Assembly (NCBI GenBank): GCA_964016885.1
Contig: OZ024741.1
Span: forward strand, 383,718,001-383,782,000
Direction: 5' to 3'
From: Eledone cirrhosa
Lineage: Eukaryota
DNA length: 64,000 nucleotides
This document shows, piece by piece, positions 14,158 to 59,373 of this stretch. Both the position numbers and the translations under genes were made by a program. The notes below the pieces were generated by a model, which saw only the letters and a program-made list of their open reading frames with translations, ran no database searches and was not told the DNA's origin. Every line of letters begins with the position of its first letter. Within the stretch, counting starts at the first letter, position 1.

Positions 14158-14206
14158 ATATACATGCACATACATATGCACATGTGTATATACATATTTA
14201 CACATT

Positions 14207-14401
14207 TTTGGATGACCGTTGACTCTTATCAGTTCTTCCGCCCTTTGTCAGGTTTTGTTTTTTCTCCAGCAGGGCGTCCAAAATCACCCTCCTCACCAAG
14301 TAAACTTGAGTGCTACTGGTAACATGTAAACCTGTACAACCTGTCACATGGTCGGGTCGTCCTAATACATACATACATACATACATACATACATACATAC
14401 A

Positions 14402-14435
<34 letters not shown>

Positions 14436-14842
14436 CATGGTGGCTGCCAACTCGTTTTCGAGTACGGCCACTACTTTATATCCATGTAGGAGAACCCCTA
14501 CCGATGCGCTGAACGAGTGTAACTTTTTAGTCCAGCCAGCCACTTGAAAACTCTGGTACAAACACTACACCTGTGACAATTATTGACACATAGTGCTGGG
14601 CCCATGGTACCATGTCACGACAAGAGCAGAGAGATCTCCAGATATAAAGCAATGCCTGTGCCGTGAAGTTTTTATAGAGAGCAAAGGCACTGCACAAAGC
14701 CAGTCCCACTCTCTTAACCAAGATGATATTTACCAAAAAGAAGAATAACATCATTGGATACCATCAGGTTTGCAGGTGTTATATCAGAGTTTTCCTTCTC
14801 CTAGAATTCTGCCTTGACAAAGGCTAAGGGGTCATCTCTCCC
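14207..14842 (-). mobile_element. Two fragments of the ~600 bp RTE-like element (14207-14363, 14438-14842) separated by (TACA)n
   Basis: Similarity to 2650-3252. Confidence 0.7.
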
Positions 14843-14895: not shown

Positions 14896-14926
<31 letters not shown>

Positions 14927-14948
14927 GTTTTCCTTTCAGATAGACGCG

Positions 14949-15730
14949 CTTCATTCTTGCTCTTTTGTTGGCATGTAAACAGAACTGCAAGCACTAGTGT
15001 TTCTGAGTATCACCCTTCATCAGTACAGCTCACTGTTCACCTACCAACTGATGAAAGGTGATACCCAGAAACATTAGTGTCTGCAGTAATGTTTACATGC
15101 CAATAAAAGAGCAAGAATGAAGGGTTCATTCTACTGACATGGCTATAAAAATGAAGTTTGTTTGTATAATTGCAAACGAATCGAATGTTATTATTAATAT
15201 TCGAAAAAAATAAAGTACCAGTAATGCACTGGGTAATTACTGGCCTTGTGCCTAAATTAGAAACAATTATTAATATTCGAAAAACTCAGATTACATTTAT
15301 TGTATTCAGCTATGTAGAGCGAAAATTTCCTTTTTTTATTTAATGTGGCAAAGCCAGCCATTTATAGCTCGTATACAGGAAACTGACTGACCAGTCTGCT
15401 GATATGCAAATCTGGCTGATCAGTGGATCTGCTAATATGCAAATCTGACTGATCAGCCAGTCTGCTAATATGCAAATTAGGCCGATCAATCACTTTAGAA
15501 AATAGCATATATTTTCACTAGCTCTGACACTTAGCAGGTGAACAGTGAGCTGTACTGATGAAGTGTGATACCCAGAAACATTAGTGTCTGCAGTTCTGTT
15601 TACATGCCAACAAAAGAGCAATAATGAAGGGTTCATTCTACTAACATGGCTATAAAATGAGGCTTGTTTGTATAATTGCAAACGAATCGAATGTTATTAT
15701 TAATATTCGAAAAACTCAGATTACATTTAT
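14949..15730 (+). mobile_element. HHR-bearing non-coding element: ~431 nt unit present ~1.4 times, plus an inverted arm at 14949-15042
   Basis: CTGATGA...GATACCCAGAAACATTAGTGTC at 15048 and 15555; 507 bp spacing includes a 76 bp SINE-tail insertion with duplicated TTATTAATATTCGAAAAA; ends in (TA)n. Confidence 0.8.
15547..15596 (+). ncRNA. Minimal type I hammerhead ribozyme motif
   Basis: GAGCTGTA-CTGATGA-AGTGTGATACCCA-GAAAC-ATTAGT-GTC-TGCAGTTC; 8 bp stem I with G-U pairs; the copy at 14982-15031 (-) has stem II GGGT/ACTC but a GCT triplet. Confidence 0.75.
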
Positions 15731-15831
15731 ATATATATATATATGTAGAAGTTCTATTTAAATTGTTGGGATACAGCAAGCAAATATTTTTATAACTGAT
15801 ATAAAGCACTCAACAAATTATTGGAGTAAAA

Positions 15832-16460
15832 ATACGATATATTAACAAATGGAAACTATATTTATAAAACCATATTTATTTCATTATACATATTTCAAGA
15901 ACATCAAGTTAAATTATGGTGTGCTTTCATCAGATAAAATATAATATAGATCAGTTTTATAAATAAATATTGACATACCCTTAAAGAATGCGTCCATTTC
16001 TTTTACTATTATGCAAATTAGTGTCGGATATTTTTAAATCACAGTAGATTTAAAATAAGCCGTTGGGGTATGGAGAAAGGGAATTGTTTTCTTATTTTCC
16101 TCTTAGAGTTTGCCCTTTTTTCTCTTTTTTCTCTTTTTTCTCTTTTTTCTCTTTTTTCTCTCTCTTTTCTTTCTCTTTCTCCATACCCCAACGGCTTATT
16201 TTAAATCTACTGTGATTTTAAAATATCCGACACTAATTTGCATAATAGTATAAATAAATTTATAACCCCACTATCCGGGAGCTTCCAAAAGAAATGATCG
16301 CATTATTTTAAGTGTATGTCAATATTTATTTATAAAACTGATCTATATTATATTTTTTCTGATGAAAGCACACCATAATTTAACTTGGTGTCCTTGAAAT
16401 ATGTATAATGAAATAAATATGGTTTTATAAATATAGTTTCCATTTGTTAATATATCGTAT
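15832..16460. mobile_element. Head-to-head inverted HHR element (arms 15832-16079 and 16175-16460)
   Basis: Arms are reverse complements around a pyrimidine-rich spacer; TA tracts on both sides. Confidence 0.8.
16351..16415 (+). ncRNA. Hammerhead ribozyme motif (mirror copy 15877-15941 on minus)
   Basis: TATTTTTT-CTGATGA-AAGCACACCA..TGGTGTCCTT-GAAAT-ATGT-ATA-ATGAAATA; ~9 bp stem II. Confidence 0.7.
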
Positions 16461-20670: not shown

Positions 20671-22133
20671 TTTTATTGTTTCGTACCAGGTCAACCCTGA
20701 TTGCACTAAACTAAAATCAATAAAATTCTATCCGTGACCATCTTACGGTTCTATAATGTGCATGGAAACCAGAACTATATTGCAGATCGAGTTCTCCTTT
20801 TAAGACGGTAAAACGTGATTTGTGGTGGAGTTACCACGTCATAGTGTTTGTAGCACTAGTGGTGGCAGTGGTGTCGGTGGTGGTATTAGCCGTTGTGTCT
20901 AAAGTAACAGATGTGATGTAGATGTTAATAGTGAAGGTGGTGGTTATGGTGGAATTACATGCAAGCAACAAAAATATCTACCTGGTGGCGGATACCTTTG
21001 TCTGTTAATGTGAAATGTCTAATATATATACTTAAAAGGAATACCAAACTCAACTCTTGGTTGACCATTAAGCAACTTTAGCTGGTGTTTAGAGCCTATA
21101 GTAAAGAAGGGCCTCAGCAATGGCGGAGCCCCAGCATGGCCTCAGCCTGTCGGCTGTAATAGAGTAATTATCAAAAGGACATATGTATTTATGAGCGACC
21201 TTTTGGTGTAATATTTTTAAAAAGAGAGACCTCCAAGCTTTATGCATCTTAGGGCATCACCAAACTTTAATCTGACACTGGACAGACGTAAACAATGGCT
21301 ATTTTTAGTGTAAGGTAAAAACGGGAATAGTTTCCTGTAGCTTTCTTCAGAACTTAAGGGAAATTCAACTCACAACAGAGATTGTTAACTAACTAATTAG
21401 CTCCTTACAATCCGTAGCTTCCCTCTCCATGTTAACAATTTATAGCTATGTTATCTGTATCAGCGAAAAGTGTGCATACTCTTAACTGAACACAACATGA
21501 ATCGCTGAACCTTTGCTATGTTTTGTGACATTCTATCCACTTGCTCTGATGTCAGAAATGCTCAATACTGCAATCATGCTTTTCTTATTAGACAGACCTT
21601 CGTTTTCACGTTTTTATTTACATACTAATTACAAATATGAAATATGAATCCAAGAAAAATGTTACAGAAAACAGTCACAGAAAAACTCACAGGGTATAAA
21701 GCCCCATTTTACTTAATTATGATAAAAAGGGAAGTTTATTAAACATAGTGGAATCGTATATCTATGAAAAATATACGGGAAAACATCATTGAAAACTCTT
21801 AAACTCTGGTTTCATCTTTTTACTCTTTCCTAACCAAAAGAGTTACTTGTTTCTGTGTTTTTCTCAATTAAAAGTGTGACTATTTTTACTTTTTTCCATG
21901 ATTTCGTTCATCATGGAATATATCCGCCTATGAGGTAATAAAGTATATATTGCGCTAATGAATGAGTCTCTGCAATGTCATTTGGCCTGTCTTATACGGT
22001 GGATAATGTAGACAGAGGTGCATTGTGGCAAGAATAAAGATGGGATAGCCAAGACTATTTAATGGCGTTATTTTATAATTAGAAGTGCATAAGATATTAA
22101 AGATTCACTAACATCATTAACAATATATAGCAA

Positions 22134-22323
22134 GGGCGGTAGATTGGCAGTATCGGTAGAGAGTCAGACGCCATACTTTCCAGCAAAGAGTTACGTCCCT
22201 TTACGGACTGAGTTCAAATCCCGCCAAGGTTAACTTTGCCTTTCATCCTTACGGGGTCGATAAAATAATGTACCAGTAATGTACTGAGTAATTGCTGGCC
22301 TTGTGCCAAAAGTAGAAAAAATT
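22134..22323 (+). mobile_element. ~190 bp tRNA-derived SINE
   Basis: A-box-like TGGCAGTATCGG, B-box GAGTTCAAATC, core GCCTTTCATCCTTACGGGGTCGATAAA; further partial copies near 12268-12605, 18107-18243, 23448-23595 (-), 53329-53440 (-). Confidence 0.8.
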
Positions 22324-24260
22324 ATGAACAATATATTTTTAATGACTGATATTTTTCGCACATTCCAAGTGTCCTTCCTATATATCGCTACCGAAAATCC
22401 TTACATATATATAATGAGCCAATAAAGAATCCTCTGCTAGAAATAAGAGTAAATTTTTCCTCAAATCACAGCCTACTGTATAAAAATAAAGACATCGGAC
22501 AATGTGGTCCGGGATAATATATTCCTAAAACAAAAGACTGAATTGCCACACCTTGAATACCTTTGATCTGTGGTCTGCTTAATCAGAGCTAAGTTGTAGC
22601 TAATCGCCAACAAAAGCCTATGTCAATTATTTTTAGTACACTTCACACTCTGTCGTCTCTGATGTTAAACTGGAAGGCATTTGAGGAAGAACATCATCGA
22701 TTGATGAATAAACGAAAGGTTGAGACCCAGTTGCCAGTTATTGTTGTACCTACTGTTCTATATTAAGAAAGAAAAACAGTCTTTTCATGCTTCAGTGAAA
22801 GTTTATCTGAATAGACCTCAAGTAGAACTGGGTGTGGTTTGAGGCTCTTTTTCATAATACACAAGTTGACAGTTGATGCGGAAAACTATAATTAAGCAAA
22901 GCTCAAAATATCCTTTTCAGTTGAAAGGAACAAGAAATATTTTACAGCTGGCTCCAGTGTTACAAAGATTATCGACAAATCAATCATTTCTAAAAGCCTC
23001 ATGAGGTGTCCTGTTCCGGATTTTTCTCAAAAGGTAGCAAATGTACTATGTAGTTTTCAACAGGTCAAGTTTATAATATAACCATCAAATTAAATTTTAC
23101 CTTTGTTGCTTTTTTTTTTGTTTTTGTTGTTGTTTAATCATAGGTCAGCTAGACCAAGGAGCATATATTGTTCCATATATCCTCACTTTGTTTCTTTTAA
23201 GACAGCATGGAGCATTTTCTGACAGGTTGAGTGACCACATTGAAGTCCCTTCAATGGCTTATTATATTGTATTTGTTGTTGTTGTTATTGCTATGGTTGT
23301 TGTTATTCTATAGCTTGGTCAGTGAGAGGCCAGCGTTCATGGCCTTAAAGTGCTCTCTCATTCAAATGAACAGGGGAAAGGGGGACAGAAACTATAATCC
23401 ATCAGTTGCTGCAGTAGGAAACACCACAACAATATAAGTATACCAATTTCTAATTTAGGTACAAGGCCAGAAAACTTGGAGGAAGAGAAAACTTAATTAA
23501 ATCAATCCCAATACTTGACTAATGCTTTATTTTATCGACCCCAGAAGTTCGAAAGAATGAAAGGCAAAGTTAACCTCAGCGGAATTTGAACTCATGAAAT
23601 AAAGAGCCATATAGATATTGTAATTACATTATATTGTAAACTCTCCGTATTCTGAATATCATCGAGTTATGTGCATATCATATAATAGCACCAATTACTT
23701 GTAAGAGAATAAAGGAAGATAATGGACAGATGATGGTGTTAAGCAGTACAAGATAACTGATGTTCTATCTATGGACAGTCAGTCTTTATTGCGAGGTATA
23801 TCCTATTAATATTTCAGGTGTAAATCTCTTTAAGGTAGGCAAGGAAATGTATACAACATGGTGGAATAGTTAAGAGGTTCGCTTTGCAATTAATCAATCC
23901 TAGGATATATCCTACTGTAGTATTTTTGGCAATTATCATTTACCATAGCCTCAGATAGATCCATGCCTTGTGATTGAAGATAGGTAGCTGGAAACTGTTT
24001 GGAAACCCAACTGAAAGACGTGTTTATGTGTTTGAGTATAATCACATACACACATTATATATAGATATATAGATATATATATTTGTGTGTGTGTGTGTGT
24101 GTACATATTTCAGTTTTGGTTTTACTTTTGATTTTCTTTCTCTGGGTAATTGTATTATGTGTGGTGTCCTTTTCACTAGTATATCTTTCTTGTATTTAGC
24201 TGTTGGGTAGAATCGTCTAAGGAAACATTATACATGTATATATATATATATATATATACA

Positions 24261-27300: not shown

Positions 27301-27630
27301 AGTCCGTTGGATGGATTATGTAATTTAATAGTCCACACATATATCGCCTTCTCTAGAAGAAATCAAATCTGGAGACGGATGGGCTCCGCCAGCTTTTAAA
27401 CATTCTAAACACTTCGCATGCTATCACGGCGCCTCTGCAAATCCATCATGAGTTACGGTTTCATGAATGTAGGTATATTTATATAAGTATGTGTATGTGC
27501 ATATGTATATATATATATATATCCAGGGAGAGTATCGCGGAGTTACTGTAGGTTCACCCAGGTGAGCACTCGATGTTTAGGTTCGCGTCAGTATCGAAGT
27601 GTAGAGCTAGACAAAGTGTAATATAATAAT

Positions 27631-27816
27631 TGATTCTACTTTTGGCACAAGGCTAGCAATTATCCCAGTATTACTGGTGCTTTATGTTATCGACTCCGTA
27701 AGGATGAAAGACAAAGTTGACTGCAGCGGGATTTGAATTTAGACCATAAAGGGCCGTAACCTTTTGCAGCAAAGCATGGCGTCAGACTCTCTACCGATAT
27801 TGCCAATCCACCGCCC
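27631..27816 (-). mobile_element. Same ~190 bp SINE family
   Basis: Reverse complement of 22134-22323. Confidence 0.75.
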
Positions 27817-28141
27817 ATGTAATATAATAATACAAGGACGAATGGTTACTTCTTCATTACGTTTATTGTTTCGTGACGCGCGTTTCGCTACTGATCAGCT
27901 CAAAGTTCGATCTGTATCGATCTAGCTCGACTCTGGAATCAAAAGCGCGTCAGATCTCTGTAGAAGTCAGGCCTCCGTACTACTACAGAATAATTGCTGG
28001 ATAATTGCTGGCCTTGTGTCAAAAGTAGAAATAATTATATATTTTGCGTCAAGTATGAAATTTGTAGAAATTTGTCTTTGTTCTACAAATTTTTACAAAG
28101 TTCATACTTGATGATCCAATATATATATATATATATATATA

Positions 28142-30821: not shown

Positions 30822-30869
<48 letters not shown>

Positions 30870-30876
30870 CATTATA

Positions 30877-31631
30877 TACTATAGAGTAAAGCATGTCCAG
30901 AGAATTATTTGATAATATATATACATCATCTCTACTCCCAATCAGCATAATTAACCACACAAAAAATCAATTAGACCAGGCTATAAGAATAAAAGGCACC
31001 TATGAAGAAACAGTAAATAAATACGCCACAGCAGCGTCTTCGCGTGCAACCGCTATAGAATATTTACCCAACATTTCAACAGCACGTGGAAATTAATTAA
31101 ATATACGGTCAACCGTACATAATTAGGTAAAAATTAATGTTAGAAATGCTTATATACATACCAGGACTAAATCACTAAATCCCGACCCTAGGGTTTCGCT
31201 TACTTTTGAGATACCTTATTCAGGTTAATACTCGAGTTTTAGAGCTCTTCAGGGGATAAACTCGCTAGGACATATTATTTTCAGAAGTGGCCCCTGCCAA
31301 ACACGAATTCAAAATGGTTGAGAACTGTGACGTGGCAGTGGTCAAGTCAGGAAGGGTGTGATTGGTTGCTTACGGCGAGTGGGTTGGTGGCTAGAAAGCG
31401 CAGCCCAATATCGCCCAAATTTTTATCTCAACCTTATGGGAGATTATTAAATATAAATATTTACACATACACCAATTAAACAAAGTCACAGATATATATG
31501 TGTTTTGGCAACTGTTCACGATGTGGCTCAATTATTTGCTCTGATTATTTAATTTATTAATTCTCCATTGAGCCCCAAAACACATATATACCTGTGACAT
31601 TGTTTAATTGGTGTATGTGTAAATATTTATA
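30877..31631 (-). mobile_element. ~690 nt HHR unit family, copy A (main arm 30877-31532, inverted arm 31533-31631)
   Basis: Highly similar to 58405-58976 but starts at a different point; related to 32774-34160; between TA tracts. Confidence 0.85.
31179..31257 (-). ncRNA. Type I hammerhead ribozyme motif
   Basis: ATCCC-CTGAAGA-GCT...AGC-GAAAC-CCTAGG-GTC-GGGAT; complete core, perfect stem I, palindromic stem III. Confidence 0.88.
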
Positions 31632-31693
31632 CATTATATATACATATATATGTATAATATATATATATATAAAATACATAATGTATACATACG

Positions 31694-31758
<65 letters not shown>

Positions 31759-32035
31759 TTCAAGAGTAACCAATCTTAAAGAGAGAGATGGAGATAGGAG
31801 AGGAGATAGGAGAGGAGAGATTGGTGAATTAGTTAGAAGCCAAAGCGTAAAGGCATGTGCTCAATGTGCAATATGCAGTAGAAAGCAGCTAGGTGGCTGG
31901 GTTCATGCAGAAGTTAGGCGCGCAGAGCTGGAAATATTCATTAGTTAAGCAAAACAAGACCACAAATTTCACAAGGAAGACATTATTAAAAGATTGTCAA
32001 CATATTTTAGTTTGATGTAAGGAATGTAGAGAATA

Positions 32036-32468
32036 ATAATAATAATATTAATAACAATAATGTCCGTTTACAATTGTTTCGCTACTCCATATAATATGTC
32101 TGGATCAGATGACTATATATCATTATTGATCTCACACAATGCAGCCTCTCACACAATGCAGATCTCACACAATGCAGATCTCACACAATGCAACCTCGAC
32201 AGATGAATACTGCTTGATTATGGCTGACAATTGATACAATTAGGACACCATAGTGAAATACCAATATATGGAACATTACATTATGTAACATTCTCTCCTT
32301 ATTTTAATTTATATTCCTTTGAAGTTCCGATGAGCTGCTCTGTTTTTAAATATGTTAATTATTTTCAACTGAACCAGATCAATAATGATATATACTCATC
32401 TGATCCAGGAATATTATATGGAGTAGCGAAACAATTGTAAACGGACATTATTATTATTAATAGTATTA
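32036..32468 (+). mobile_element. HHR element with short inverted arm (32036-32132 mirrors 32376-32468) in (AAT)n
   Basis: Reverse-complement arms; four ~16 bp CTCACACAATGCA repeats at the junction. Confidence 0.7.
32324..32442 (+). ncRNA. Hammerhead-like motif with CCGATGA core and long stem II loop
   Basis: GTT-CCGATGA-GCTGCTCTGT...ATGGAGTAGC-GAAAC-AATT-GTA-AAC; 10 bp stem II. Confidence 0.6.
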
Positions 32469-32655
32469 GGGTGGTGGATTGGCAGTATCTGTAGAGAGTC
32501 GGACGCCATGCTTTCCAGCATAGTTACGTCCCTTTACGGTCTGAGTTCAAATCCCGCCGAGGTTTACTTTGCCTTTCATGCTTACGGGGTCGATAAAATA
32601 AAGTACCAGTAATGCACTGGGTAATTGCAGGCCTTGTGCCTAAAGTAGAAACAAT
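32469..32655 (+). mobile_element. Same ~190 bp SINE family
   Basis: Similarity to 22134-22323; inserted in an ATT-rich tract. Confidence 0.8.
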
Positions 32656-33157
32656 TATTATTAATATTATTATTATTATAAAATATGTTACAATCTTTTA
32701 ATAATGTCTTCCTTGTGAAATTTGTGGTCTTGTTTTGCTTAACTAATGAATATATATATATATATATATATATATAAAGGTTTACATATACATAAAGTTA
32801 TAGATATATATGTTGCAACCGGTCACTTTGTGGCTCTATGAAGAATTAATAAATTAAATAATCAGAGCAATATATCATAAATCATGTCTTTTGAATTATT
32901 AGATAAAATATATACCATTTCCTCTCCCAATCAGCATAATTAACCATATAAAAAATCAATTAGACCAAGCTATAAGAATAAAAGCTCTTATGAAGAAATC
33001 TCCAACAAATAACCGAAAGTGGCCTCTTCGCGGTGGCCCCAATAGAGTATTTATCCAACATTTCGACAGCATGTAGAAACTGACTAAATATACCATCAAC
33101 CATACACAATTAGGTGTAAATTCGAACTTAGAAGAAATGTGTACATACCGTAATTAT

Positions 33158-33235
33158 ATCTCTACCATGGTTTCATCCGTATTTTTAGACATCCAATTAA
33201 TAGGAAATGTCCAGAGTTAGGATTCATCAGGAGAC
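33158..33235 (-). ncRNA. Type I hammerhead ribozyme motif
   Basis: GTCTC-CTGATGA-ATCC...GGAT-GAAAC-CATG-GTA-GAGAT. Confidence 0.88.
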
Positions 33236-33803
33236 AAACTCAAAATTAGACATTTAGTTTTCCAAAGTGATCGCGCCAAAATTAGATTCAAAAATGGCTA
33301 AGAATCGCAATGTGGCAGTGGTCAAGTTAGAAAGAATGTGATTGGTTGCTTACGGCGGGTAGGCTTGTTGCTAGAAAGCGCAGCCAAATATCGCCACATT
33401 GTATCTCAACCTAACGGGAGATTATTAAATATAAAGGTTTACATATACATAAAGGGAGAGGAAATGGTATATATTTTATCTAATAATTCTAAAGACATGA
33501 TTTATGATATATTGCTCTGATTATTTAATTTATTAATTCTTCATAGAGCCACAAAGTGACCGTTTGCAACATATATATCTATAACTTTATGTATATGTAA
33601 ACCTTTATATTTAATAATCTCCCGTTAGGTTGAGATACAATTTGGCGATATTTGGCTGCGCTTTCTAGCAACAAGCCTACCCGCCGTAAGCAACCAATCA
33701 CATTCTTTCTAACTTGATCACTGCCACATTGCGATTCTTAGCCATTTTTGAATCTAATTTTGGCGCGATCACTTTGGAAAACTAAATGTCTAATTTTGAG
33801 TTT

Positions 33804-33881
33804 GTCTCCTGATGAATCCTAACTCTGGACATTTCCTATTAATTGGATGTCTAAAAATACGGATGAAACCATGGTAGAGAT
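33804..33881 (+). ncRNA. Type I hammerhead ribozyme motif (mirror of 33158-33235)
   Basis: Same motif on the plus strand. Confidence 0.88.
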
Positions 33882-34153
33882 ATAATTACGGTATGTACAC
33901 ATTTCTCCTAAGTTCGAATTTACACCTAATTGTGTATGGATATTTAGTCAGTTTCTATATCCTGTCGAAATGTTGGATAAATACTCTATTGGGGCCACCG
34001 CGAAGAGGCCACTTTCGATTATTTGTCGGAGATTTCTTCATAAGAGCCTTTATTCTTATAGCTTGGTCTAATTGATTTTTTATATGGTTAATTATGGTGA
34101 TTGGGAGAGGAAATGGTATATATTTTATCTAATAATTCTAAAGACATGATTTA

Positions 34154-34219
<66 letters not shown>

Positions 34220-34356
34220 ATATATATGAGTCCCGGGTTCAATGGAGATAACCATAGTGAGTAAGGTACTCAATACATTAGTAGAGCGTAAACATGAAAT
34301 TTAATATAGAAATGGCTTCTATTAAACTAGAACTGTTTCATTCCAATGAAACAGAT

Positions 34357-34465
<109 letters not shown>

Positions 34466-35029
34466 AGTTGACGATAAAAGATTCTGTTATGCCCTGCTGA
34501 CTCTAGTAGTGATAATAATAATTTCTAAAAGTGTCGCAAGGTCAGAAATTTTGTTTGCCAAAGAGAGATTAGTTTGTTAATACTTTATTTAATGAAGGTC
34601 GAAATGTCTTTGACGGGAATTGAACTCAGGACAAAAGTTGCAAAAATAAATACAACAATTTGTCTGACGTTCTAGAGGTTCTGCCATTCCTGCATATGGC
34701 CGGGCTTTGAAATCAAACTTTAGTTTAAGCCAGTGCGATTAAATTCATGAGTAATTTGAGAATAGATGAAAATAACATTGTATATTGGAAAACAAAATTC
34801 GTCAAGAATATGATACGTGCTATTAATACTTTTAACGTACTAGGCATAAACTATGACTCATACAGAATTGAGCTGGAATAAACGGAACAATTATTCCTTT
34901 CCTAGATTCAATAACACGTAATACGAGAACTCTACTAATAAATTACCACGTACTATACATTTACTTTGACATCTAATGACTCTAGATGGTATGGAGTTAT
35001 TGGGCATCAAAAGAGTTTGAAAAGTCTAT

Positions 35030-35400
35030 TCAATTCATACTGGAGCCAGCAGGCCTAGAGCGCGGAGATGGCAAGCACCCAGACGGAATCACCCACTTCG
35101 CCTCCAACTTAGTCTCTTCGGCCACAAAACCTGCATCGCAAACCGCCTCGCAGAAGAACATAAGATAAACAAACACCGGGGTTTGTCCAGCCGCTTCCAC
35201 TTCACATCGGTCACCGTCGAGACCTCAGGCGTACTTGGACCACGTACTGCCGAGCTCCTTCGCAAGATCAGTGGCCGTCTGAGGAGGAAGCCCCACGAGC
35301 TTGGGTGGCTGTTGCAGCGGGTGACACTGGCCATCGTCCGAGGTAATGCTTTTGCCGTCTTGTCAGCGAGGTGCAGCACTTTTTCTCTATTGCCCTAGGC
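35030..35400 (+). mobile_element. C-terminal restriction-like endonuclease fragment of a CRE-like non-LTR retrotransposon
   Basis: EPAGLERGDGKHPDGIT...VETSGVLG...LLQRVTLAIVRGNA. Confidence 0.7.
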
Positions 35401-41997: not shown

Positions 41998-42122
<125 letters not shown>

Positions 42123-42181
42123 CGTTTTTGAATTTGTTTTGCAAGATTTGTTTTCTGAAAACGTGTGCTAAACAGGTATTG

Positions 42182-42386
42182 TTATACTTTGGGAGGGTCA
42201 TGCTGCCAAGCAAAACACACGCACCTGTTGGTTTTCACATCAATTTATTATGCATTTCCGGTTGGTTGGTTCGATAACCGGAAGGTTGTTTATATATTGT
42301 CAAAGCTCTTTCGTCAAATATTCTGATAAGTGAAAACCAACAGGTGCGTGTGTTATTATTGGCAGCATAATCCTCCCAAAGTATAA
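42182..42386. repeat. Inverted repeat with ~57 bp arms and ~90 bp spacer between TA tracts
   Basis: TTATACTTTGGGAGG...CTGTTGGTTTTCAC mirrored by GTGAAAACCAACAG...CCTCCCAAAGTATAA. Confidence 0.75.
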
Positions 42387-42496: not shown

Positions 42497-43085
42497 GTGG
42501 TTACACAACAGTTAGTTCACCTTACCGAGAACAATTGTTTCACCTTCGCGGATCTTCAGCTCGGGATGTGTATGGTTATAGGAACAGGAAGTACAACGGA
42601 ACGAACGCGCATGCGCAGAAACTCTGTCACTTCACACAGGCAATATAGACTGCGTCCGGGAGGTGTAAGGGATATAACTGCGAAAGTCCGGAAAGTTTTT
42701 AGGTTGAAAATAAAATATAAAAATATTAAAAATAAAATTACAAAGAATCAGTCCGGAGCCTTGTAGTTATGCAATAGATGTTTGGTGACGTGTGGACAAC
42801 GTGTGAAAAATTCACTCTCGTGTTTAGGCAATCACTATTGCGTAATCTCTTTAGGATAGTTATTCGTTCGTCAATACATAAGCCACACGTCGGATTTCCC
42901 CTTGCGTATGGCTTGGTCTTAGTGATGGCTTTCCATTGAATGGAATAGCCTATACTTGAGTCCTTGAGGGACCATACGTGGCTGGCAAGTTTCGTGGATG
43001 AACGTCTGTCCGGGTGTCTGAAGGTAGACTGGTGGTTCAGGAAATGCTCCTTGAATCGGCCCTCCTCCATGTCCACATATATATA
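42493..43085 (-). mobile_element. 3' fragment of a second Penelope-like element (GIY-YIG C-terminus plus HHR-bearing tail)
   Basis: FKEHFLNHQSTF...TKLASHVW...IQWKAI...CGLCIDE...LNTR aligns to the endonuclease at 48760-49122; ends in (TA)n. Confidence 0.85.
42525..42564 (-). ncRNA. Minimal hammerhead ribozyme motif
   Basis: CCGAG-CTGAAGA-TCCGCGAAGGT-GAAAC-AATT-GTT-CTCGG. Confidence 0.82.
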
Positions 43086-43149
43086 TATGAGTGCCAATAC
43101 TGGAATTGAATAATCAAGACCGTAGCGGTATGTCATATAACAAATCATA

Positions 43150-43212
43150 TATTTTGTCTGATGAAAACGTTCTGAAACAACACAGTACCTTTGAAATATA
43201 TTTCATAAAGTA
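43150..43212 (+). ncRNA. Degenerate hammerhead motif
   Basis: TATTTTGT-CTGATGA-AAA...TTT-GAAATATAT-TTC-ATAAAGTA; 8 bp stem I, mismatch in stem III. Confidence 0.5.
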
Positions 43213-43493
43213 TATAATTTGATTATGCGAATATTTTTCACTTGTTAACATTTTGAATAATATTAAAAACTCCAGGAAAACACACTGTTGAGTGCTTCTA
43301 GCTACTGTAAAATTATATTCGTTGAGTAATCAACGAACCATACTAATCTTTGGTTATATATATATATATATATATATATATAGGAAAAGAGTCAGGACTC
43401 CAACGGCCGGAGCTCAGCCGGAACCACTCAACTAACCTAAAATGTAAGATACATCACTGAGGCATATTGATAATTAGTGGTGATGTATGTATG

Positions 43494-43596
<103 letters not shown>

Positions 43597-43811
43597 TTAA
43601 TTATTATTAATTATACTATTTATGGTTATGTAAATACAAAAACCTTTTGCAGTTATATGTATTTTTTTATACAAACCCTAAATAGTGGTAGGCAGTAATA
43701 TATTACTACCTTATTACCAGTAAGTTAAGTAGCTCAATGTAAAAACATCAGATGATTTACAGAGCAGTTATATGAAATATAAGAATCAAAGAACTGTTCA
43801 AGACATTTTTG

Positions 43812-43858
43812 TGCTTACAGCTGTTTCCTCCAAACCGAGGTTTAGATTCTTCGGAGCA
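43812..43858 (-). ncRNA. Hammerhead-like motif with CCGAAGA core in PLE 3' region
   Basis: TGCT-CCGAAGA-ATCTAAAC-CTCG-GTTTGGAG-GAAAC-AGCT-GTA-AGCA. Confidence 0.72.
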
Positions 43859-45307
43859 ATTTATTAATGAATGGACAGTTATATGACCTCCTTTTCACCC
43901 AAGAGACATACAGATACATATGCAAATATTGTGGGTCAACATTCATTACAGCATTTAAAGTGGCAGTACACACTTCGAGATTACATTCATATTAAAAGGT
44001 ACAATCAAGAATCAAAAATACAGGTTAAAATACAACATGAAAATAAGCGGTTATATAGTGCAAATGTTATATGAGTGGCAAGCACGTGCGTCTTGTTTAT
44101 ATAGTGTGGCAGAGAGTTACGTGTAGTAGAAGCACTTAGGTAGGTAAACAAGAGTGTTAGGTTGGTTGATCTGGTGGCAAATTCTTTATATGATTGTTAC
44201 AGTCTGTGTGTGGAGAAATGATATAAGCATTAAAAATAGTGTAAGCATTAAAAATATTAAAAATATTGGAAATGCACAGCGAAGGGATGATATAGACTTC
44301 ATGTACTTCGATATTTTCATGGTCAGGGGAGTGTATTTTTCAGATTATATTGCCCTCACATAATCCACGACAATTCGATATTGAGCGTTTGACAATCCAG
44401 TTAGAGAATCGTAGTCTGATGTTCTTTAGTTCAATACAGGAGGCTGTTACGTTTCGAGAATCGACATTGAATACTACCCGGAAGTGTGTGTGTGGCTAAG
44501 GGGAGTTAATGCATGAGGGGAGGTAACTCCGAGGTTTCTATTCCTAGCTATTGAAATGTGTCTCAATATAGACCCTAATTTCTATGGTTGTGCGCAACTT
44601 CCAAAATATTTCTAAAGCATAAAGTGTTTTAACTATAGAGTGTCTATTAAGTTGTGCTGAAGGTGTTCGTATTATTATGGTGAATTAACCCCCATCGTAG
44701 GGTGCCACAAATGAATATTATAGACGATGAGCGAGGATTCTAAATTAATGATCTCTGTGGTTGTAGTCTGCTCATAGGACCAGGCGCGGTGATTGCAGAA
44801 TCACTTCAACACTCAATGATCTCTGGTAAGTTCTGGGTCATCGCTTGTTACATTGGATGTCGAAAGATAATCATCACCTGGGCCGACCAGAGGTCAATCC
44901 GCAGTCCTCATGACCCCACTCTGACCATCAAATCATCCATATATGTACAACCCGCACGTCAGTTGCAATACATTCATTCGCTGCACTCAGCGTCCTGGTC
45001 CTACTGCTCAACAGCGTTACTAGATTAAATCGTTTTTCATCCGTCCAAGGAAGGCACTTCCTCCGCACAACACTACCAAGCCAATCAATTCATGCTTAAA
45101 TTACCTATAGAGCGGTGTAGTGCAGTTCAAGTGGGTGGATGTTGTCACACCTAACGTAGAGGTATAAATGGGTATTCTCTCTGCGAAAGGTTCCAGAGGG
45201 ATGTCGTTGTTTGTGTTATATGAGATCAGTTAGTGTTGGGTATGTGGTATAAGGTGTGCCCCTGGTGTTTGATGCTAGATGTGGTGTTTGGTTCAAGTCC
45301 GACCTTG

Positions 45308-47464
45308 CTATATATTGGGCTTAAAGTTTTGGAAGGAATGTCTGAAGCGGTGCTGGCAAGTTGCAAACACCTCAGATTTTTTGTTAAGTAGGTTACGGTT
45401 AGAGAAGATAATATTGTGGGTCTCTAGTATACAGAGGTTACAAAATTTATTAGGTGGTTTGTACGAAGTTGCGCTGCCTATCACTTCCCATTTGAGTGTG
45501 TATGGTTTATTTTTAGTTTTTAGATAGTGTATGTAGCTAGATAGTGAGGTGGAGTTGGCTAGGCTGTGCTTTTTGAACGAGTGGATGTGCGAATTATATC
45601 TGATTTTGAAGCAGTTAGAAGTGGACCCTACATAGGTTTCTGAAGAGTTGCTAGTTGTGACGGTGCATGATTATATGATATCCTTGGTTAGGCATTTTTT
45701 ATCTAAAGGGCAGGTTCTATTAGCTCTACAGTTACAATTATCCTGTGTGTTAGTCTGCTGGTTATAATGCAGTGCAGAAGTCTGGGTGGTAGCTATAGGA
45801 TTTTGGACATTCGGGTTGTCAACCCCGGTGTTATTTCTTATACTAGTGTTATTTCTATTGTTACTGCCGTTACTATGGTTGCTTGCTACAGAGGTATTTA
45901 GAAGGTTTGCATCCTGTTGTGATTTCGTTTGTTGGAAGTAAGAATTAATTTTACTTTTATTGCTGCTAGCTATGTGGTATGCTAAGTTAGGCATCGTAGA
46001 GTATGAGATTTTAATAGTGTTTTTGTTTAAAAGGTTGTGGTACTTGTGTCCTAGAGGGAAGTTTTTATCTAGTAGTGAGAAGAAAGCCATAGGTATGTTG
46101 GTGGAGACATTTAGGTTGAAAGGAGGGTTTAAAAATGTATTATTTCTTCTTCTATTTTTGTTTTTAGTGTTTGATGTGTTGTTTCTTCCTAAGGCACCAC
46201 AGTAGTTTCCGTGGTAATAGTTACTTCCGGTGGCACCCTCCGCTTTGGTGTACTTGTGGTTGCTATTCCTATTATTAGGTTTCCTCATGGACATGTTGTG
46301 CGAGATGATGTTGTAGCTATGTGTTTTCTTAGGTAGGAACTCAATTTCTATATTATGGCCGGATCTAGCTAATGCTTGATTGTAATATTGTGAGTTTTTG
46401 CTAAATATGTTTGCGTCATAGGATAGACTAGAGATTCTATTGGATACCCCCTTAGAGATAGAGTTTAATATTGATCTAGGGTGATTAGACTTGTTATCTA
46501 CGTAAATTAGTTTTTCGTTAGGCTTATGGAAAGGTGTATATATTTTTGAGTCTAGGTATAGTGTGGCGTCTAGGAAGTTAACATTTTTAGTGTTTTTGTC
46601 CATGGTGATACTAAGGTTAAAGTTTTTGAATGTCTTGTGCAATTGTTTTCTAGTTCTTTCTATATTAAATTTTTTATATTCTATAAGTAGAAGTGCATCA
46701 TCGCGGTACAAACCACCGTTGAGGTAAGGGAGGTCCTTATGGATTTCATTAAGAAGGTATAGGCCGACCAAATCAGTGACCTGCGCCGAATCACTAGATC
46801 CCATGGTTATGTCGAAGTTGTTGTGCGTATCCTTGCGTGTCCATAGTTGGTCCTCGAAGGTGATTATGGTTTTACGGGCCGCAAGTATGACATCAATCTG
46901 GGCTCTAGTCAAGTCGCTATTGTTTATGGCCATGATAAGTGCCTTATTTAATAGGATAGGGGAAATAGAGGTGTAGTATGATCTCAAATTGAATAAATTT
47001 GTTGTCCTTATTATTCTTGATATCTTTGAACCATTCAATCACTTCACCCGTATTTCCACATTGTTTAAGGTGTATCTTGTGTTTAATTTGTGGGATGATT
47101 TTATCCAAAATTTTCTTGCTGATAATACCAATGTCGGACTTGGAAGGGCAGATAAGTCTTATCGAGGGGTTGCTGATGAAGTCCTCCTTATGGTCCTTCA
47201 GAGAGAATATAGGGGGGTTTGGGGTGAATGGTTGTGTATGCCTCTGAAGTCCTAGTTTAGACACTATATTATATCCCTCTATATTAATATCTTCTAAGTT
47301 TTTCAAGGTGGTCTTCTTGTAGCTTTTATGTAGTTCATTATATATAAACTTTCTATAAGTATTATAATCTAGGCTGTATATGTTATTAGTTTTATCTGCG
47401 TGTACAATAATTTTATTACTAGTTTTGAATCCATTAATAGAGGTGTTAAGTTTGTTTAAGAAGG
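45308..47464 (-). pseudogene. PLE RT-GIY-YIG ORF, disrupted
   Basis: Frameshift near 46980 (QFEI../YTSISP); TAA at 45671-45673 in place of the Tyr of IIY. Confidence 0.85.
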
Positions 47465-49122
47465 TTTCCCCTATCCTATTAAATAAGGCACTTATCATGG
47501 CCATAAACAATAGCGACTTGACTAGAGCCCAGATTGATGTCATACTTGCGGCCCGTAAAACCATAATCACCTTCGAGGACCAACTATGGACACGCAAGGA
47601 TACGCACAACAACTTCGACATAACCATGGGATCTAGTGATTCGGCGCAGGTCACTGATTTGGTCGGCCTATACCTTCTTAATGAAATCCATAAGGACCTC
47701 CCTTACCTCAACGGTGGTTTGTACCGCGATGATGCACTTCTACTTATAGAATATAAAAAATTTAATATAGAAATAACTAGAAAACAATTGCACAAGACAT
47801 TCAAAAACTTTAACCTTAGTATCACCATGGACAAAAACACTAAAAATGTTAACTTCCTAGACGCCACACTATACCTAGACTCAAAAATATATACACCTTT
47901 CCATAAGCCTAACGAAAAACTAATTTACGTAGATAACAAGTCTAATCACCCTAGATCAATATTAAACTCTATCTCTAAGGGGGTATCCAATAGAATCTCT
48001 AGTCTATCCTATGACGCAAACATATTTAGCAAAAACTCACAATATTACAATCAAGCATTAGCTAGATCCGGCCATAATATAGAAATTGAGTTCCTACCTA
48101 AGAAAACACATAGCTACAACATCATCTCGCACAACATGTCCATGAGGAAACCTAATAATAGGAATAGCAACCACAAGTACACCAAAGCGGAGGGTGCCAC
48201 CGGAAGTAACTATTACCACGGAAACTACTGTGGTGCCTTAGGAAGAAACAACACACCAAACACTAAAAACAAAAATAGAAGAAGAAATAATACATTTTTC
48301 AACCCTCCTTTCAACCTAAATGTCTCCACCAACATACCTAGGGCTTTCTTCTCACTACTAGATAAAAACTTCCCTCTAGGACACAAGTACCACAACCTTT
48401 TAAACAAAAACACTATTAAAATCTCATACTCTACGATGCCTAACTTAGCATACCACATAGCTAGCAGCAATAAAAGTAAAATTAATTCTTACTTCCAACA
48501 AACGAAATCACAACAGGATGCAAACCTTCTAAATACCTCTGTAGCAAGCAACCATAGTAACGGCAGTAACAATAGAAATAACACTAGTATAAGAAATAAC
48601 ACCGGGGTTGACAACCCGAATGTCCCAAATCCTATAGCTACCACCCAGACTTCTGCACTGCATTATAACCAGCAGACTAACACACAGGATAATTGTAACT
48701 GTAGAGCTAATAGAACCTGCCCTTTAGATAAAAAATGCCTAACCAAGGATATCATATAATCATGCACCGTCACAACTAGCAACTCTTCGGAAACCTATGT
48801 AGGGTTCACTTCTAACTGCTTCAAAATCAGATATAATTCGCACATCCACTCGTTCAAAAAGCACAGCCTAGCCAACTCCACCTCACTATCTAGCTACATA
48901 CACTATCTAAAAACTAAGAATAAACCATACACACTCAAATGGGAAGTGATAGGCAGCGCGACTTCGTACAAACTACCTAATAAATTTTGTAACCTCTGTA
49001 TACGAGAGACCCACAATATTATCTTCTCTAACCGTAACCTACTTAACAAAAAAGCTGAGGTGTTTGCAACTTGCCAGCACCGCTTCAGACATTCCTTCCA
49101 AAACTTTAAGCCCAATATATAG
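47465..49122 (+). pseudogene. PLE RT-GIY-YIG ORF with internal TAA at 48757-48759
   Basis: Frame continues after the stop: SCTVTT...TYVGFTSNCFKIRYNSH...KWEVI...CNLCIRE...LLNKKAE...CQH...PNI*. Confidence 0.88.
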
Positions 49123-50571
49123 CAAGGTCGGACTTGAACCAAACACCACATCTAGCATCAAACACCAGGGGCACACCTTATACCACATACCCAACACTAA
49201 CTGATCTAATATAACACAAACAACGACATCCCTCTGGAACCCTTCGCAGAGAGAATACCCATTTATACCTCTACGTTAGGTGTGACAACATCCACCCACT
49301 TGAACTGCACTACACCGCTCTATAGGTAATTTAAGCATGAATTGATTGGCTTGGTAATGTTGTGCGGAGGAAGTGCCTTCCTTGGACGGATGAAAAACGA
49401 TTTAATCTAGTAACGCTGTTGAGCAGTAGGATCAGGACACTGAGTGCAGCGAATGAATGTATTGCAACTGGCGTGCGGGTTGTACATATATGGATGATTT
49501 GATGGTCAGAGTGGGGTCATGAGGACTGCGGATTGACCTCTGGTCGGCCCAGGTGATGATTATCTTTCGACATCCAATGTAGCAAGCGATGACCCAGAAC
49601 TTACCAGAGATCATTGAATGTTGAAGTGATTCTGCAATCACCGCGCCTGGTCCTATGAGTAGACTACAACCACAGAGATCATTAATTTAGAATCCACGCT
49701 CATCGTCTATAATATTCATTTGTGGCACCCTACGATGGGGGTTAATTCACCATAATAATACGAACACCTTCAGCACAACTTAATAGACACTCTATAGTTA
49801 AAACATTTTATGCTTTAGAAATTTTTTGGAAGTTGCGCATAACCATAGAAATTTGGGTCTATATTGAGACACATTTCAATAGCTAGGAATAGAAACCTCG
49901 GAGTTACCTCCCCTCATGCATTAACTCCCCTTAGCCACACACACACTTCCGGGTAGTATTCAATGTCGATTCTCGAAACGTAACAGCCTCCTGTATTGAA
50001 CTAAAGAACATCAGACTACGATTCTCTAACTGGATTGTCAAACGCTCAATATCGAATTGTCGTGGATTATGTGAGGGCAATATAATCTGAAAAATACACT
50101 CCCCTGACCATGAAAATGTCGAAGTACATGAAGTCTATATCATCCCTTCGCTGTGCATTTCCAATATTTTTAATATTTTTAATGCTTACACTATTTTTAA
50201 TGCTTATATCATTTCTCCACACACAGACTGTAACAATCATATAAAGAATTTGCCACCAGATCAACCAACCTAACACTCTTGTTTACCTACCTAAGTGCTT
50301 CTACTACACGTAACTCTCTGCCACACTATATAAACAAGACGCACGTGCTTGCCACACATATAACATTTGCACTATATAACCGCTTATTTTCATGTTGTAT
50401 TTTAACCTGTATTTTTGATTCTTGATTGTACCTTTTAATATGAATGTAATCTCGAAGTGTGTACTGCCACTCTAAATGCTGTAATGAATGTTGACCCACA
50501 ATATTTGCATATGTATCTGTATGTCTCTTGGGTGAAAAGGAGGTCATATAACTGTCCATTCATTAATAAAT

Positions 50572-50618
50572 TGCTCCGAAGAATCTAAACCTCGGTTTGG
50601 AGGAAACAGCTGTAAGCA
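50572..50618 (+). ncRNA. Hammerhead-like motif with CCGAAGA core (mirror of 43812-43858)
   Basis: Same motif on the plus strand, ~40 bp before (TA)n. Confidence 0.72.
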
Positions 50619-50649
50619 CAAAAATGTCTTGAACAGTTCTTTGATTCTT

Positions 50650-50731
<82 letters not shown>

Positions 50732-51130
50732 CATACATCACCACTAATTATCAATATGCCTCAGTGATGTATTTTACATTTTGAATACAAATAAGGTCGT
50801 GTATCGAATTGAAATAAACTTGATCAGCTGATATTATTCAACCAATTAGTATATACGTATTAGATGTTGAAAAAAAATCGATTAATCAAAGTTATCCAAG
50901 CGATTAGTATATAAGTACTTCCTCTTGGTGTATTTGAAATCCAAAATGAGCATAAATCCAAAAAGAAGAAAGATATCTTATGAAGATCGGTTGATCGATA
51001 TTTTTGGTTATCGACAGTAGATCTTCTAATAGAGATTTCCTTTTATTAGATATTTTCCAACAAACATAGAGTAGATATTCATGAGCAGTCTTATTACACT
51101 ACACCTCTCACCCCTCCCTCCTCCTCTCCA

Positions 51131-51333: not shown

Positions 51334-51376
<43 letters not shown>

Positions 51377-51452
51377 CAAAGGTATTGTGGTAAGGAACCA
51401 GATGGACCATAACGCACCAGAGTACTCAATACTTAGAGTAGTAGAGTGGGAA

Positions 51453-51550
51453 ATATGAAAAAGTATGACTCCGACGGCAGAGCTCAAGCCGTTTCGACGG
51501 CTGAAAATAGCCGTCGAAACTGCTTGAGCTCTGCCGTCGGGGTCATACTT

Positions 51551-51558
<8 letters not shown>
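51453..51558. repeat. Near-perfect 106 bp hairpin
   Basis: ATATGAAAAAGTATGACTCCGACGGCAGAGCTCAAGCCGTTTCGACGGCT-GAAAAT-mirror arm with 2 mismatches. Confidence 0.9.
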
Positions 51559-57470: not shown

Positions 57471-58404
57471 ATCAGCTAGCCAGCAAATGTCAATATAATA
57501 CTGAATATTAGCGAAAAGTAGAATATTTATGCTGACTTAATGAGGAGTCACAAAGACTATACCTTTATATTTGTACCTGAGATCATTAGGACACTTGGAT
57601 ATGATACTAGTTCAGTACAAATCTTGCGAAGCTGGGCTTCACAAAACCGGAAAGGAAAGGAGCCTATCTCAGAAACGGTCAAAGGAAACTAACTATCCCT
57701 ATTTCTATTGCTGGTATTAACTGCCTGTCAGAAAGAGGATGGATATGATCTCAGCGCTCTCACGACAGGATCAAATACTGGGTCTTTAATTATTCTGCCA
57801 ATCTACCGGCCCCAGAATGGTACTTTAGCTATCGAACTCGAATGGATAATAGGAGAATATTCCTATTGCAGTATTCGAACTTGGAATGCAGAGACCCGGA
57901 ATAGATATCGACGCTTTAACAACTCTGCCAATTCACCGCAGAAATTAAACCAAGCCCCCACATATTGAAATACATATATATACATATAGAATACACTTCA
58001 TCGCTGAATTCATTGTTTCTGGCGTGGAAGCGTATGAACACATGACATCCTCGTGAGTATGCTTGCAAATAAAGTATATGTGCGTTACGTTTTATACACC
58101 ATCCTTTATAAGTTGATTCTCAACTCTATTTTTAACATTGGTTTCGACAATTAGAGCACGTTCGACAATTCAAGCACATTTTTTCTTATTGACTTTTGTT
58201 GATTATATAAAATGTTTGTATTCCAGATATTTCGGTTCTCCCAACACCAGATCACTCTGAACCACAGTGTACACAGGTTTATGATTCTCTTTGCAACACC
58301 ACTAACAAAAGCAGTATTTCATCATAGACATCTACTATGATCATCTGACTACCAGAAGTACAATACGTCCAGGGTTATATATATATATATATATATATAT
58401 ACAC

Positions 58405-58976
58405 TACACCAATTAAACAAAGTCACAGGTATATATGTGTTTTGGCAACTATTCACGATGTGGCTCAATGAAGAATTAATAAATTAAACAATCAGAGCAA
58501 AATACTATATAGTAAAGCATGTCCAGAGAATTATTTGATAATATATATACATCATCTCTACTCCCAATCAGCATAATTAACCACACAAAAAATCAATTAG
58601 ACCAGGCTATAAGAATAAAAGGCACCTTTGAAGAAACAGTAAATAAATACGCCACAGCAGCGTCTTCGCGTGCAACCGCTATAGAATATTTACCCAACAT
58701 TTCCACAGCACGTGGAAATTAATTAAATATACGGTCAACAATACATAATTAGGTAAAATTAAAGTTAGAAATGCTTATATACATACCAGGATTAAATCAC
58801 TAAATCCCGACCCATGGGTTTCGCTCACTTTTGAGATACCTTATTAAGGATGAATCTCGAGTTTAGAGCTCTTCAGGGGACAAACTCGCTAGGACAGATT
58901 ATTTTTCGAAGTGGCCCCCGCCAAACACGAATTCAAAATGGTTGAGAACTGTGACGTGGCAGTGGTCAAGTCAGGA
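58405..58976 (-). mobile_element. ~690 nt HHR unit family, copy C (different permutation from copy A)
   Basis: Begins with the sequence that ends copy A, then runs into the sequence that begins copy A; abuts (TA)n. Confidence 0.85.
58804..58881 (-). ncRNA. Type I hammerhead ribozyme motif
   Basis: GTCCC-CTGAAGA-GCTC...GAGC-GAAAC-CCATGG-GTC-GGGAT. Confidence 0.88.
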
Positions 58977-59373
58977 TGGTTAATTTATCTGGCAATAAAT
59001 GTTTATCATTGATTGATTACAAATACAGATATAACTATATATATATAGTCTATCAAAGTTCTTTCGTCACACATCTGCAACATCATCAGTGGTACTATTA
59101 TGTTCCCTCCCGTTGTATTGTAATGCTTACGCCATTTTTATTTTATTTATATATATATATACAAATAAAATATAGAGTTATTAACTCATATTGATACCCT
59201 GCAATTAACAACCTCAAAGTATAAATACTGAGCATTATAATATTAATATATGTAGAAATATACACAGTAAATTCTGCGTCTAAAATTACGAGGGTAGATT
59301 ATACCACTAATGTTTTATGTATTTAAACTGAAGCATACAGTAAGATACAAGATTTCCTATACATACCGATTTC

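Follow-up and report, generated by a model that had tools for sequence, protein, structure and literature searches.

The microsatellite-rich animal DNA considered here is a 64,000-nucleotide stretch (the window) of Eledone cirrhosa contig OZ024741.1 (assembly GCA_964016885.1, positions 383,718,001 to 383,782,000 of the forward strand). Within it lie three copies of a non-coding, retrozyme-like element. Two of these, A and B, consist of inverted arms joined head-to-head in TA-rich DNA, and the third, C, is a single arm. The question is how the inverted arms came about. An earlier reading of the sequence (the original prediction) held that both ends of a cut (TA)n tract had independently primed reverse transcription on a circular or multimeric RNA, the two cDNAs then being joined. 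In the list below, p1 and p2 are two sites within the repeat unit: p2 lies just before TTGCTCTG, and p1 is the TTTATA before TTTAATAATCTCCC. The unit of B is numbered from 33454 as position 1 (33454-34102, 649 nt).

30876-31631: insertion A, head-to-head, one long and one short arm (window self-comparison)
30876..31532, minus strand: long arm of A, 657 nt out of the ~689 nt of a unit; ends 3' at p2; crosses the ribozyme cleavage site
31533..31631, plus strand: short arm of A, 99 nt; 5' end 0-3 nt from p2, 3' end at p1
30866..30878, plus strand: target-site duplication of A, 13 bp, left-hand copy, TATACATTATATA; the final 3 nt double as the 3' end of the long arm
31628..31640, plus strand: right copy of the same 13-bp duplication, TATACATTATATA; its first 4 nt double as the 3' end of the short arm
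31179..31257, minus strand: hammerhead-like motif of A, with CUGAAGA core, GAAA, palindromic tetraloop and GUC; predicted cut after 31184
32750..32776, no strand: (AT)n array, left flank of B (microsatellite listing)
32772-34161: insertion B, head-to-head, two arms (window self-comparison)
32772..33454, minus strand: left arm of B, covering 132-806 of the unit; ends 3' at p1 (TA microhomology, 5 nt)
33157..33236, minus strand: hammerhead-like motif of the left arm of B, type I; predicted cut after 33163
33454..34161, plus strand: right arm of B, covering 1-708 of the unit; ends 3' at p2 (TA microhomology, 6 nt)
33803..33882, plus strand: hammerhead-like motif of the right arm of B, with CUGAUGA core and GUA triplet; predicted cut after 33876
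34156..34227, no strand: (AT)n array, right flank of B (microsatellite listing)
58400..58979, minus strand: copy C, single 5'-truncated arm; ends 3' within (TA)n, upstream of p1 by ~10 nt

The element

The unit measures 649 nt in B and ~689 nt in A (a range of 650-690 nt) and is low in GC (0.34 and 0.37). The longest stop-to-stop frame within the arms is 78 codons, and the arms of A and B contain no reverse transcriptase (RT) or GIY-YIG frame of their own. Copies A and C are close relatives (459 of 481 columns identical, 95%), whereas A and B agree at about 71%. Each of the four long arms carries a type I hammerhead-like motif with core, stems I-III and NUH triplet, in the order CUGA(U/A)GA core, stem II, GAAA, a short stem III with palindromic tetraloop, GUA or GUC, and a 5-6-bp stem I. 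Four compensatory pair changes distinguish the motif of B from those of A and C, and there is one mismatch in stem II of A. Rfam returned no hammerhead in the window at the gathering score, nor at E-values up to 10; no other family reached the gathering score either, and loose E-values gave only microsatellite-driven microRNA matches. The motif also sets the polarity of the arms: because the strand reading outward from each junction carries it, the junctions are 5'-to-5' and the outer ends are 3'. The arm ends were considered as marks of ribozyme cutting, and this was rejected: the cut maps to position 423 of the unit, the ends at the junction to 1 and 132.

Non-long-terminal-repeat retrozymes are defined in PMC7229834 and bioRxiv 10.64898/2026.07.22.740005. 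(The papers cited in this account were covered in part, and what is said of their content refers to those parts.) With the animal representatives the present family shares a non-coding, low-GC unit (below 45-50%), one type I hammerhead per unit with a palindromic loop 3, and head-to-tail genomic copies, seen in both B arms, which exceed one unit, and in joints between units in sequencing reads. It differs in its unit length (649-689 nt versus 150-450 nt in PMC7229834), in a long and structured loop 2, in being known here from DNA alone, and in the head-to-head insertion of A and B into (TA)n, which the retrozyme passages searched do not describe. Because the unit exceeds the 150-450 nt of that definition, we call the element retrozyme-like rather than a retrozyme; the sequence predicts ribozyme self-cleavage. 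An 18-nt pattern matched at 7 metagenome loci, in every case over 18-38 nt and without likeness in the flanks, and these matches were set aside as chance; a longer gapped pattern found no match in viral or prokaryote contigs.

Arms, end sites and junctions

The short arm of A had been claimed to hold sequence absent from the long arm, and it does. The 31-mer on which the claim rested has its exact place at 31533-31563 on the minus strand, and it matches nowhere in the long arm of A with up to 3 mismatches allowed; the other three of its four matches lie in both B arms and in copy C, and none of 100 shuffles gave any match. The first 34 nt of the short arm are not an inverted copy of the adjoining long-arm end. 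In the unit order of copy C, the 3' end of the long arm of A continues straight into the first bases of the short arm; because C is uninterrupted sequence there, across p2, the short arm can be said to stop 0-3 nt from the start of the long arm, about where the original prediction had placed it on the circle. The short arm also has an internal 16-nt deletion, absent from that prediction.

A single duplication encloses the whole of A. The 13-mer TATACATTATATA, chosen from the window's repeat listing (family D15) and then counted, occurs exactly twice in the 64-kb window; the automatic duplication finder gave another, microsatellite-like string for A and nothing convincing for seven other inserts. 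If the two copies are taken to reflect a staggered cut with 3' overhangs, p2 has 3 nt of pairing with the top end and p1 has 4 nt with the bottom end; extending both overhang ends then reproduces exactly the two arms of A. One duplication bounding two inverted pieces is the arrangement of L1-type twin priming.

In B the arms overlap by 1 nt at the junction, and no target duplication is discernible within pure (AT)n. The first 59 nt of the right arm recur exactly at its end. The arms are identical at 567 of 585 columns (97%), with 10-11 substitutions and an 8-nt indel between them. The arm with the extra 3' piece is the one without the extra 5' piece, and in neither A nor B is one arm a contiguous subset of the other. 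The original prediction had gone further, holding the B arms too long to have been copied back from one another. The lack of nesting stands; it rules out no more than copy-back in one uninterrupted step, because both arms exceed one unit and every base of either arm is present in the other in permuted order.

That both arms of B come from one source is indicated by sequencing reads. The B unit was compared with four of nine listed runs from other samples (X1, X7 and X8 among them), the best of which contains 0.64 of the window's words; X5 and X6, with small shares, were not among the four. These reads are the one source of data from outside the window. Of the 40 variable sites shown for X1 (231 further sites were not shown), 6 differ between the arms, and at each of these the left-arm letter is the one that makes up at least 98% of X1 depth. 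The arms agree at the other 34 listed sites, and at 11 of them both carry the minority allele of X1; at 33915, for example, 97% of X1 depth differs from both. Because these minority alleles are common to both arms, the arms of B derive from one lineage and not from distinct subfamilies, the case that the original prediction had set against itself.

This bears on the idea that the arms of each insert are two separate insertions, or neighbouring copies fused by later deletion, of different ages. The region is indeed a chain of successive inserts in one TA array (A, an unrelated insert D, B and more), and the right arm of B has 8 private changes to 2 in the left (inferred from A, C and the right-arm repeat, with 2 unassigned). 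But that split lacks statistical significance (p = 0.11, with a range of 0.04-0.39 according to where the unassigned two are placed), A as a whole is enclosed by one duplication, no target DNA lies between the arms at either junction, and the B arms are 97% alike with minority alleles in common; such a history is very improbable. The 8 to 2 split may instead point to two templates, or to error-prone synthesis of the second arm.

The outer ends show a regularity. All four fall on the same two homologous sites: p2 ends the long arm of A and the right arm of B, p1 the short arm of A and the left arm of B, so that the long and short roles are swapped between the two inserts. With 12 alternating-TA runs of at least 4 nt per unit, the chance of a matching pair is 1 in 66; with nearby runs merged to 9 sites it is 1 in 36; either figure is a rough null drawn from two cases. 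A longer TA run stands 30-45 nt upstream of p1 in both units and was used in neither A nor B. The p1-p2 interval is about 100-115 nt, and the one-sided extension is 98 nt in B and ~114 nt in A. All these ends are internal TA-rich sites, with no sign of a first primer on a poly(A) tail, and all four abut (TA)n or TA-rich DNA. Over the window, at least 3 nt of alternating TA are common to end and target at 10 of 13 ends examined, versus 8.9% of positions in the B unit. Such sharing fits microhomology priming, and also a copy-back hop.

Copy-back is the core of the published alternative, in which one cDNA or antisense RNA folds, copies itself and hops to the second (TA)n end. For A and B this self-priming would need a second event as well: loss of ~34 nt (A) or 131 nt (B) on one side of the hairpin centre, or, in B, a jump via the 59-nt repeat. 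The model is in print on the strength of palindromes at inverted junctions (PMC3846280). Of eight junctions that we scanned for symmetry, four (F, H and the inserts at 12.9 kb and 28 kb, all described below) are symmetric at the centre, with 8-16-bp stems, which is what fold-back predicts, and F shows an 11-nt one-sided loss beside its palindromic centre. Palindrome centres are prone to asymmetric deletion, and fold-back plus such an event would leave a target duplication identical to that from two-ended priming. In A and B, however, the best junction stems are 3 and 4 bp, so that there is no palindrome, and nested arms are likewise missing. The extra event is required in both inserts, and each time the copy-back would have to end at the primary end of the other copy, bypassing stronger TA runs. 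Nor do symmetric centres alone favour fold-back, because two antisense cDNAs would be expected to anneal only at a self-complementary site, which leads to such centres as well. Fold-back is on balance an unlikely origin for A and B.

The reads offer a further view of the family, which is abundant in them (X1 depth 6,000-245,000). Subfamily divergence breaks read alignments, and the depth profile and the table of molecule ends were not used as evidence. Head-to-tail joints, from the unit end back to its start, occur in X1, X7 and X8 (three of the four runs), and 107 reads of X8 leave the unit exactly behind p2 (33512) into (AT)n. An opposite-strand joint at 33499/33892 (X1, depth 5.8) has one end 13 nt from p2, and must be head-to-head because its shorter side, 48 bases, exceeds the 46 bases below 33499. 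Such joints also speak to the suggestion that a source locus already carried the inversion and gave rise to a single composite RNA, which was then retrotransposed. Inverted loci are common in the window and could be transcribed through, but the junction of a master copy should recur deeply, whereas opposite-strand joints are few and shallow (depth 5.8 in X1, 5 reads in X7), and their positions differ. The suggestion, which we think highly improbable, also only moves the question one step back.

Inverted repeats trouble assemblers (PMC8557442), and the B junction was unseen in the four runs, so that an assembly or chimeric-read artefact has to be considered. The arms, however, differ from each other (10-11 substitutions and the 8-nt indel in B, the 16-nt indel in A), they are offset rather than mirrored, their end sites are conserved, and A has its target duplication; and because the best run contains only 0.64 of the window's words, the B locus may simply be absent from those samples. 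We give an artefact almost no credence.

Several observations weigh against priming from both ends. The informative insertions are only two, A and B. The p1 arm of B ends 72 nt short of p2, and copy C ends 10 nt away from p1. Four of the eight junctions have the symmetric centres just described, and in a large Penelope element of the window the right arm is nested in the left, as copy-back would have it. No sequence in the window links A or B to an autonomous partner. In the reads, no (AT)n end at p1 appears among the 24 of 506 loose-end rows listed; the B junction is absent among 8 joints and 12 of 16 spaced joints listed for the four runs; neither the A nor the B junction is confirmed in independent reads, the comparison covering B only; and a second opposite-strand joint, 33981/34044 (X7, 5 reads), is not near p2.

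Probable priming at both ends of the target

Two-ended priming is nonetheless the better supported reading, because of the conserved ends at p1 and p2, the 13-bp duplication of A and the common source of the B arms. In A and B, then, both target ends probably primed reverse transcription, and the cDNAs were joined head-to-head. Of the original prediction, these two parts are the best supported; the RNA may have been circular or multimeric.

The sequence of events may be pictured as follows. A Penelope-type endonuclease/reverse transcriptase, acting in trans, would cut a TA-rich target on both strands and leave 3' overhangs; the stagger in A, read from the duplication, would be 13 nt. Each target 3' end would pair, by 3-6 nt of TA microhomology, with the element RNA at p1 or p2, and the ends so primed would be extended by reverse transcription toward the 5' side of the RNA (the end positions are observed, and priming there is what they suggest). 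The template would be a multimer or a circle, uncut or religated at the ribozyme site, because all three long arms (A, B left and B right) cross that site; a linear multimer would suffice, because head-to-tail DNA of the family exists. The two cDNA ends would be joined with 0-1 nt of homology and the gaps filled, yielding a head-to-head insert with arms that end at different sites, one of them with a p2-p1 'tail'. In A, the p1 cDNA would have halted at the p2 primer, as if both primers sat on one RNA (twin priming), and A fits one RNA with two primers. In B, both cDNAs would have run to slightly more than one unit; this is compatible with a single RNA at least 2.2 units long, leaving a gap of 72 nt, with a circle carrying two strand-displacing enzymes, or with two RNAs (dual priming).

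A broader and more tentative proposal, which we hold possible but doubtful, is that Penelope-type retrotransposition is two-ended by design. That is, an enzyme dimer on one RNA would bring p1 and p2 to opposite DNA ends, and a single step would produce the inverted arm together with the tail. Where the template is a retrozyme circle, one enzyme would follow the other round it, displacing strands, for roughly one turn. Four of five arms measure 0.95, 1.04, 1.09 and 0.84 unit (0.84-1.09), which hints at a one-turn limit; transcripts slightly longer than one unit are also compatible.

Much of the layout is familiar from Penelope-like elements (PLEs). Inverted 5'-truncated copies, a one-sided tail and (TA)n targets are PLE hallmarks whose origin is called undefined in PMC8557442; there the origin of tandem and inverted insertions is named an open question, and the only explicit model found, in PMC3846280, explains the head-to-head repeats by self-priming on an antisense template. 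The likeness of A and B to PLEs as described in these two papers extends to the inverted 5'-truncated copy joined head-to-head at the 5' end, the extension at one end, partial tandems, (TA)n targets and, in A, a target duplication round the whole unit, such duplications being of variable length in PLEs. In contrast to PLEs, A and B encode no protein, and their tails are 98 and ~114 nt versus 30-40 nt; in contrast to the self-priming model, their arms are not nested and their junctions have no palindromes. For these two copies, A and B contradict that published model. The inverted layout was already known; the evidence for separate priming at two conserved sites is new.

The original twin-priming model, of 2001, reportedly concerned L1, and twin priming is already known from that element; the mechanism proposed here is a point for mobile-element specialists. 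Twin and dual priming of L1 are described in PMC2837659. There both target 3' ends prime, as is proposed for A and B, and a duplication bounds two inverted pieces, as in A; in twin priming, moreover, the second primer is internal and uses microhomology, and the first cDNA ends near the second priming site, much as the short arm of A ends near p2. The octopus element differs from L1 in lacking poly(A), in having both primers on internal, apparently fixed sites, and in its repetitive template, on account of which the arms overlap in sequence and may each exceed one unit.

Biochemical parallels come from the Poseidon PLE of the green anole. The purified enzyme cleaves and extends both DNA strands, and in vitro it starts at two internal RNA sites, the interval between which equals the tail (PMC11167929). 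An AT-rich target, an uncleaved RNA template and two-strand cutting and extension are features that A and B would share under the proposed reading. Unlike the microhomology of A and B, its starts lie at RNA sites not homologous to the cut DNA, which adds to the points against our reading; and the parts of PMC11167929 covered do not link the start sites to inverted insertions. Circles have been proposed as templates for tandems in PMC4209133, where opposite-strand hammerhead pairs 100-700 bp apart are also reported; the parts covered of PMC2377424 and PMC9977147 contain nothing on mechanism. No proposal of twin priming for these elements was found in the literature searched, which took in neither supplements nor older subscription reviews, so that a prior statement may exist.

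Small, repetitive, non-autonomous copies, in a genome rich in them, offer an uncommon read-out: for any one insertion, which arm carries the centre, together with the places where the arms end, discriminates two-ended priming from fold-back. If priming from both ends holds for A and B, then tail and inverted arm alike would be caused by what was observed in vitro (PMC11167929), namely two start sites and extension of both strands, and retrozyme-like RNAs would be tied mechanistically to Penelope enzymes.

A Penelope-like element and other inserts of the window

43594..50661, no strand: Hydra-type Penelope-like element, 5'-truncated; head-to-head arms of 3.2 kb, each with its outer end in (TA)n
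31756..32753, no strand: insert D, unrelated and inverted, between A and B in the same TA chain; arms 31934-32132 and 32376-32753, left boundary inferred

The Hydra-type element is of the kind expected as an enzyme source for A and B. Its arms differ at 29 of 3196 columns (99% alike), the left arm being longer by ~480 nt at the centre and by 175 nt at the outer end. A stop between RT and endonuclease is present in both arms, and a frameshift near 46975 in the left. The clade assignment rests on motifs read by eye from the translation against the clade description: DKT motif, CxCX5C linker, C-terminal GIY-YIG with CxxC and CxH, and (TA)n target; the GIY-YIG domain itself scored only E = 0.019, short of the curated threshold. 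The clade is further marked by a canonical hammerhead and an N-terminal RWK motif. No CTGANGA-GAAA core was found in the arms of this copy, which lacks its 5' part and begins only at about residue 99 of the closest named relative. Among named proteins, the one nearest to a retrotransposon protein of the window comes from the octopod Argonauta hians (40% identity).

Between A or B and the Penelope-like arm, the best match is 18 nt (E = 0.095), with no shared 3' sequence. The A/B/C element is probably mobilised by a Penelope-type enzyme; the relation is inferential, because this is the only candidate partner available and shares no sequence link with it.

Inverted repeats of 47 nt (43439-43485 and 50736-50782) flank the Hydra-type element beyond (TA)n, and inverted repeats of 34 nt (59114-59147 and 60089-60123) flank insert F in the same way. 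They could be hairpin inserts of greater age with TA at the centre; alternatively they could be target flank copied in inverted orientation, which would favour copy-back.

Counting A, B and the Hydra-type element, the window has 11 inverted inserts in 64 kb. The eight others belong to unrelated small families (15746-16460, 31756-32753, 42120-42386, 51376-51558, 59160-60046, 14926-15745, 12924-13298 and 28049-28119); most have one end in (TA)n, and several contain CTGATGA cores. D, E, G and H each lack a second copy for comparison, and their centres and apparent tails are unassignable. The outer extension is apparently on the left arm in 8 of 9 callable inserts (A being the exception), though most of these extensions could be flank and the bias may be chance or misread.

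A head-to-tail array of at least 3.3 units of ~528 nt, 95-97% alike, occupies 62251-64000 and represents an unrelated retrozyme-like family; each unit has a CTGAAGA-GAAA core on the minus strand, and the array ends in (TA)n with 4 nt of microhomology. A constrained search for a type I fold gave none for the cores of this array or of insert F.

A dispersed 220-nt repeat resembling a short interspersed element (SINE), probably similar to an octopus SINE, is found at 22111-22341, 27623-27832, 32446-32667 and 59691-59911, with fragments at 15207, 18109, 23507 and 53309. Three times it has inserted in AT-rich parts of inverted inserts (D, F and the 15-kb insert); in D it interrupts the right arm at ~32470-32660.

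Broken frames of long interspersed element (LINE) type, with endonuclease and RT, lie at 3772-7198 and 54953-57139 (two copies, 74% alike), and an RTE-like RT fragment at 60484-61116, all labelled from their translations. A GIY-YIG-like fragment of another Penelope family lies at 42738-43202 (minus strand); the fragment at 35021-35398 (plus strand) looks like the C-terminus of a LINE with a restriction-like endonuclease. Pfam matched neither of the last two, and the RT fragments of the window were likewise unrecognised. A second microsatellite-associated family is a 650-nt repeat adjoining (TACA)n, with three copies 91-95% alike at 2631-3307, 10043-10712 and 14206-14842.

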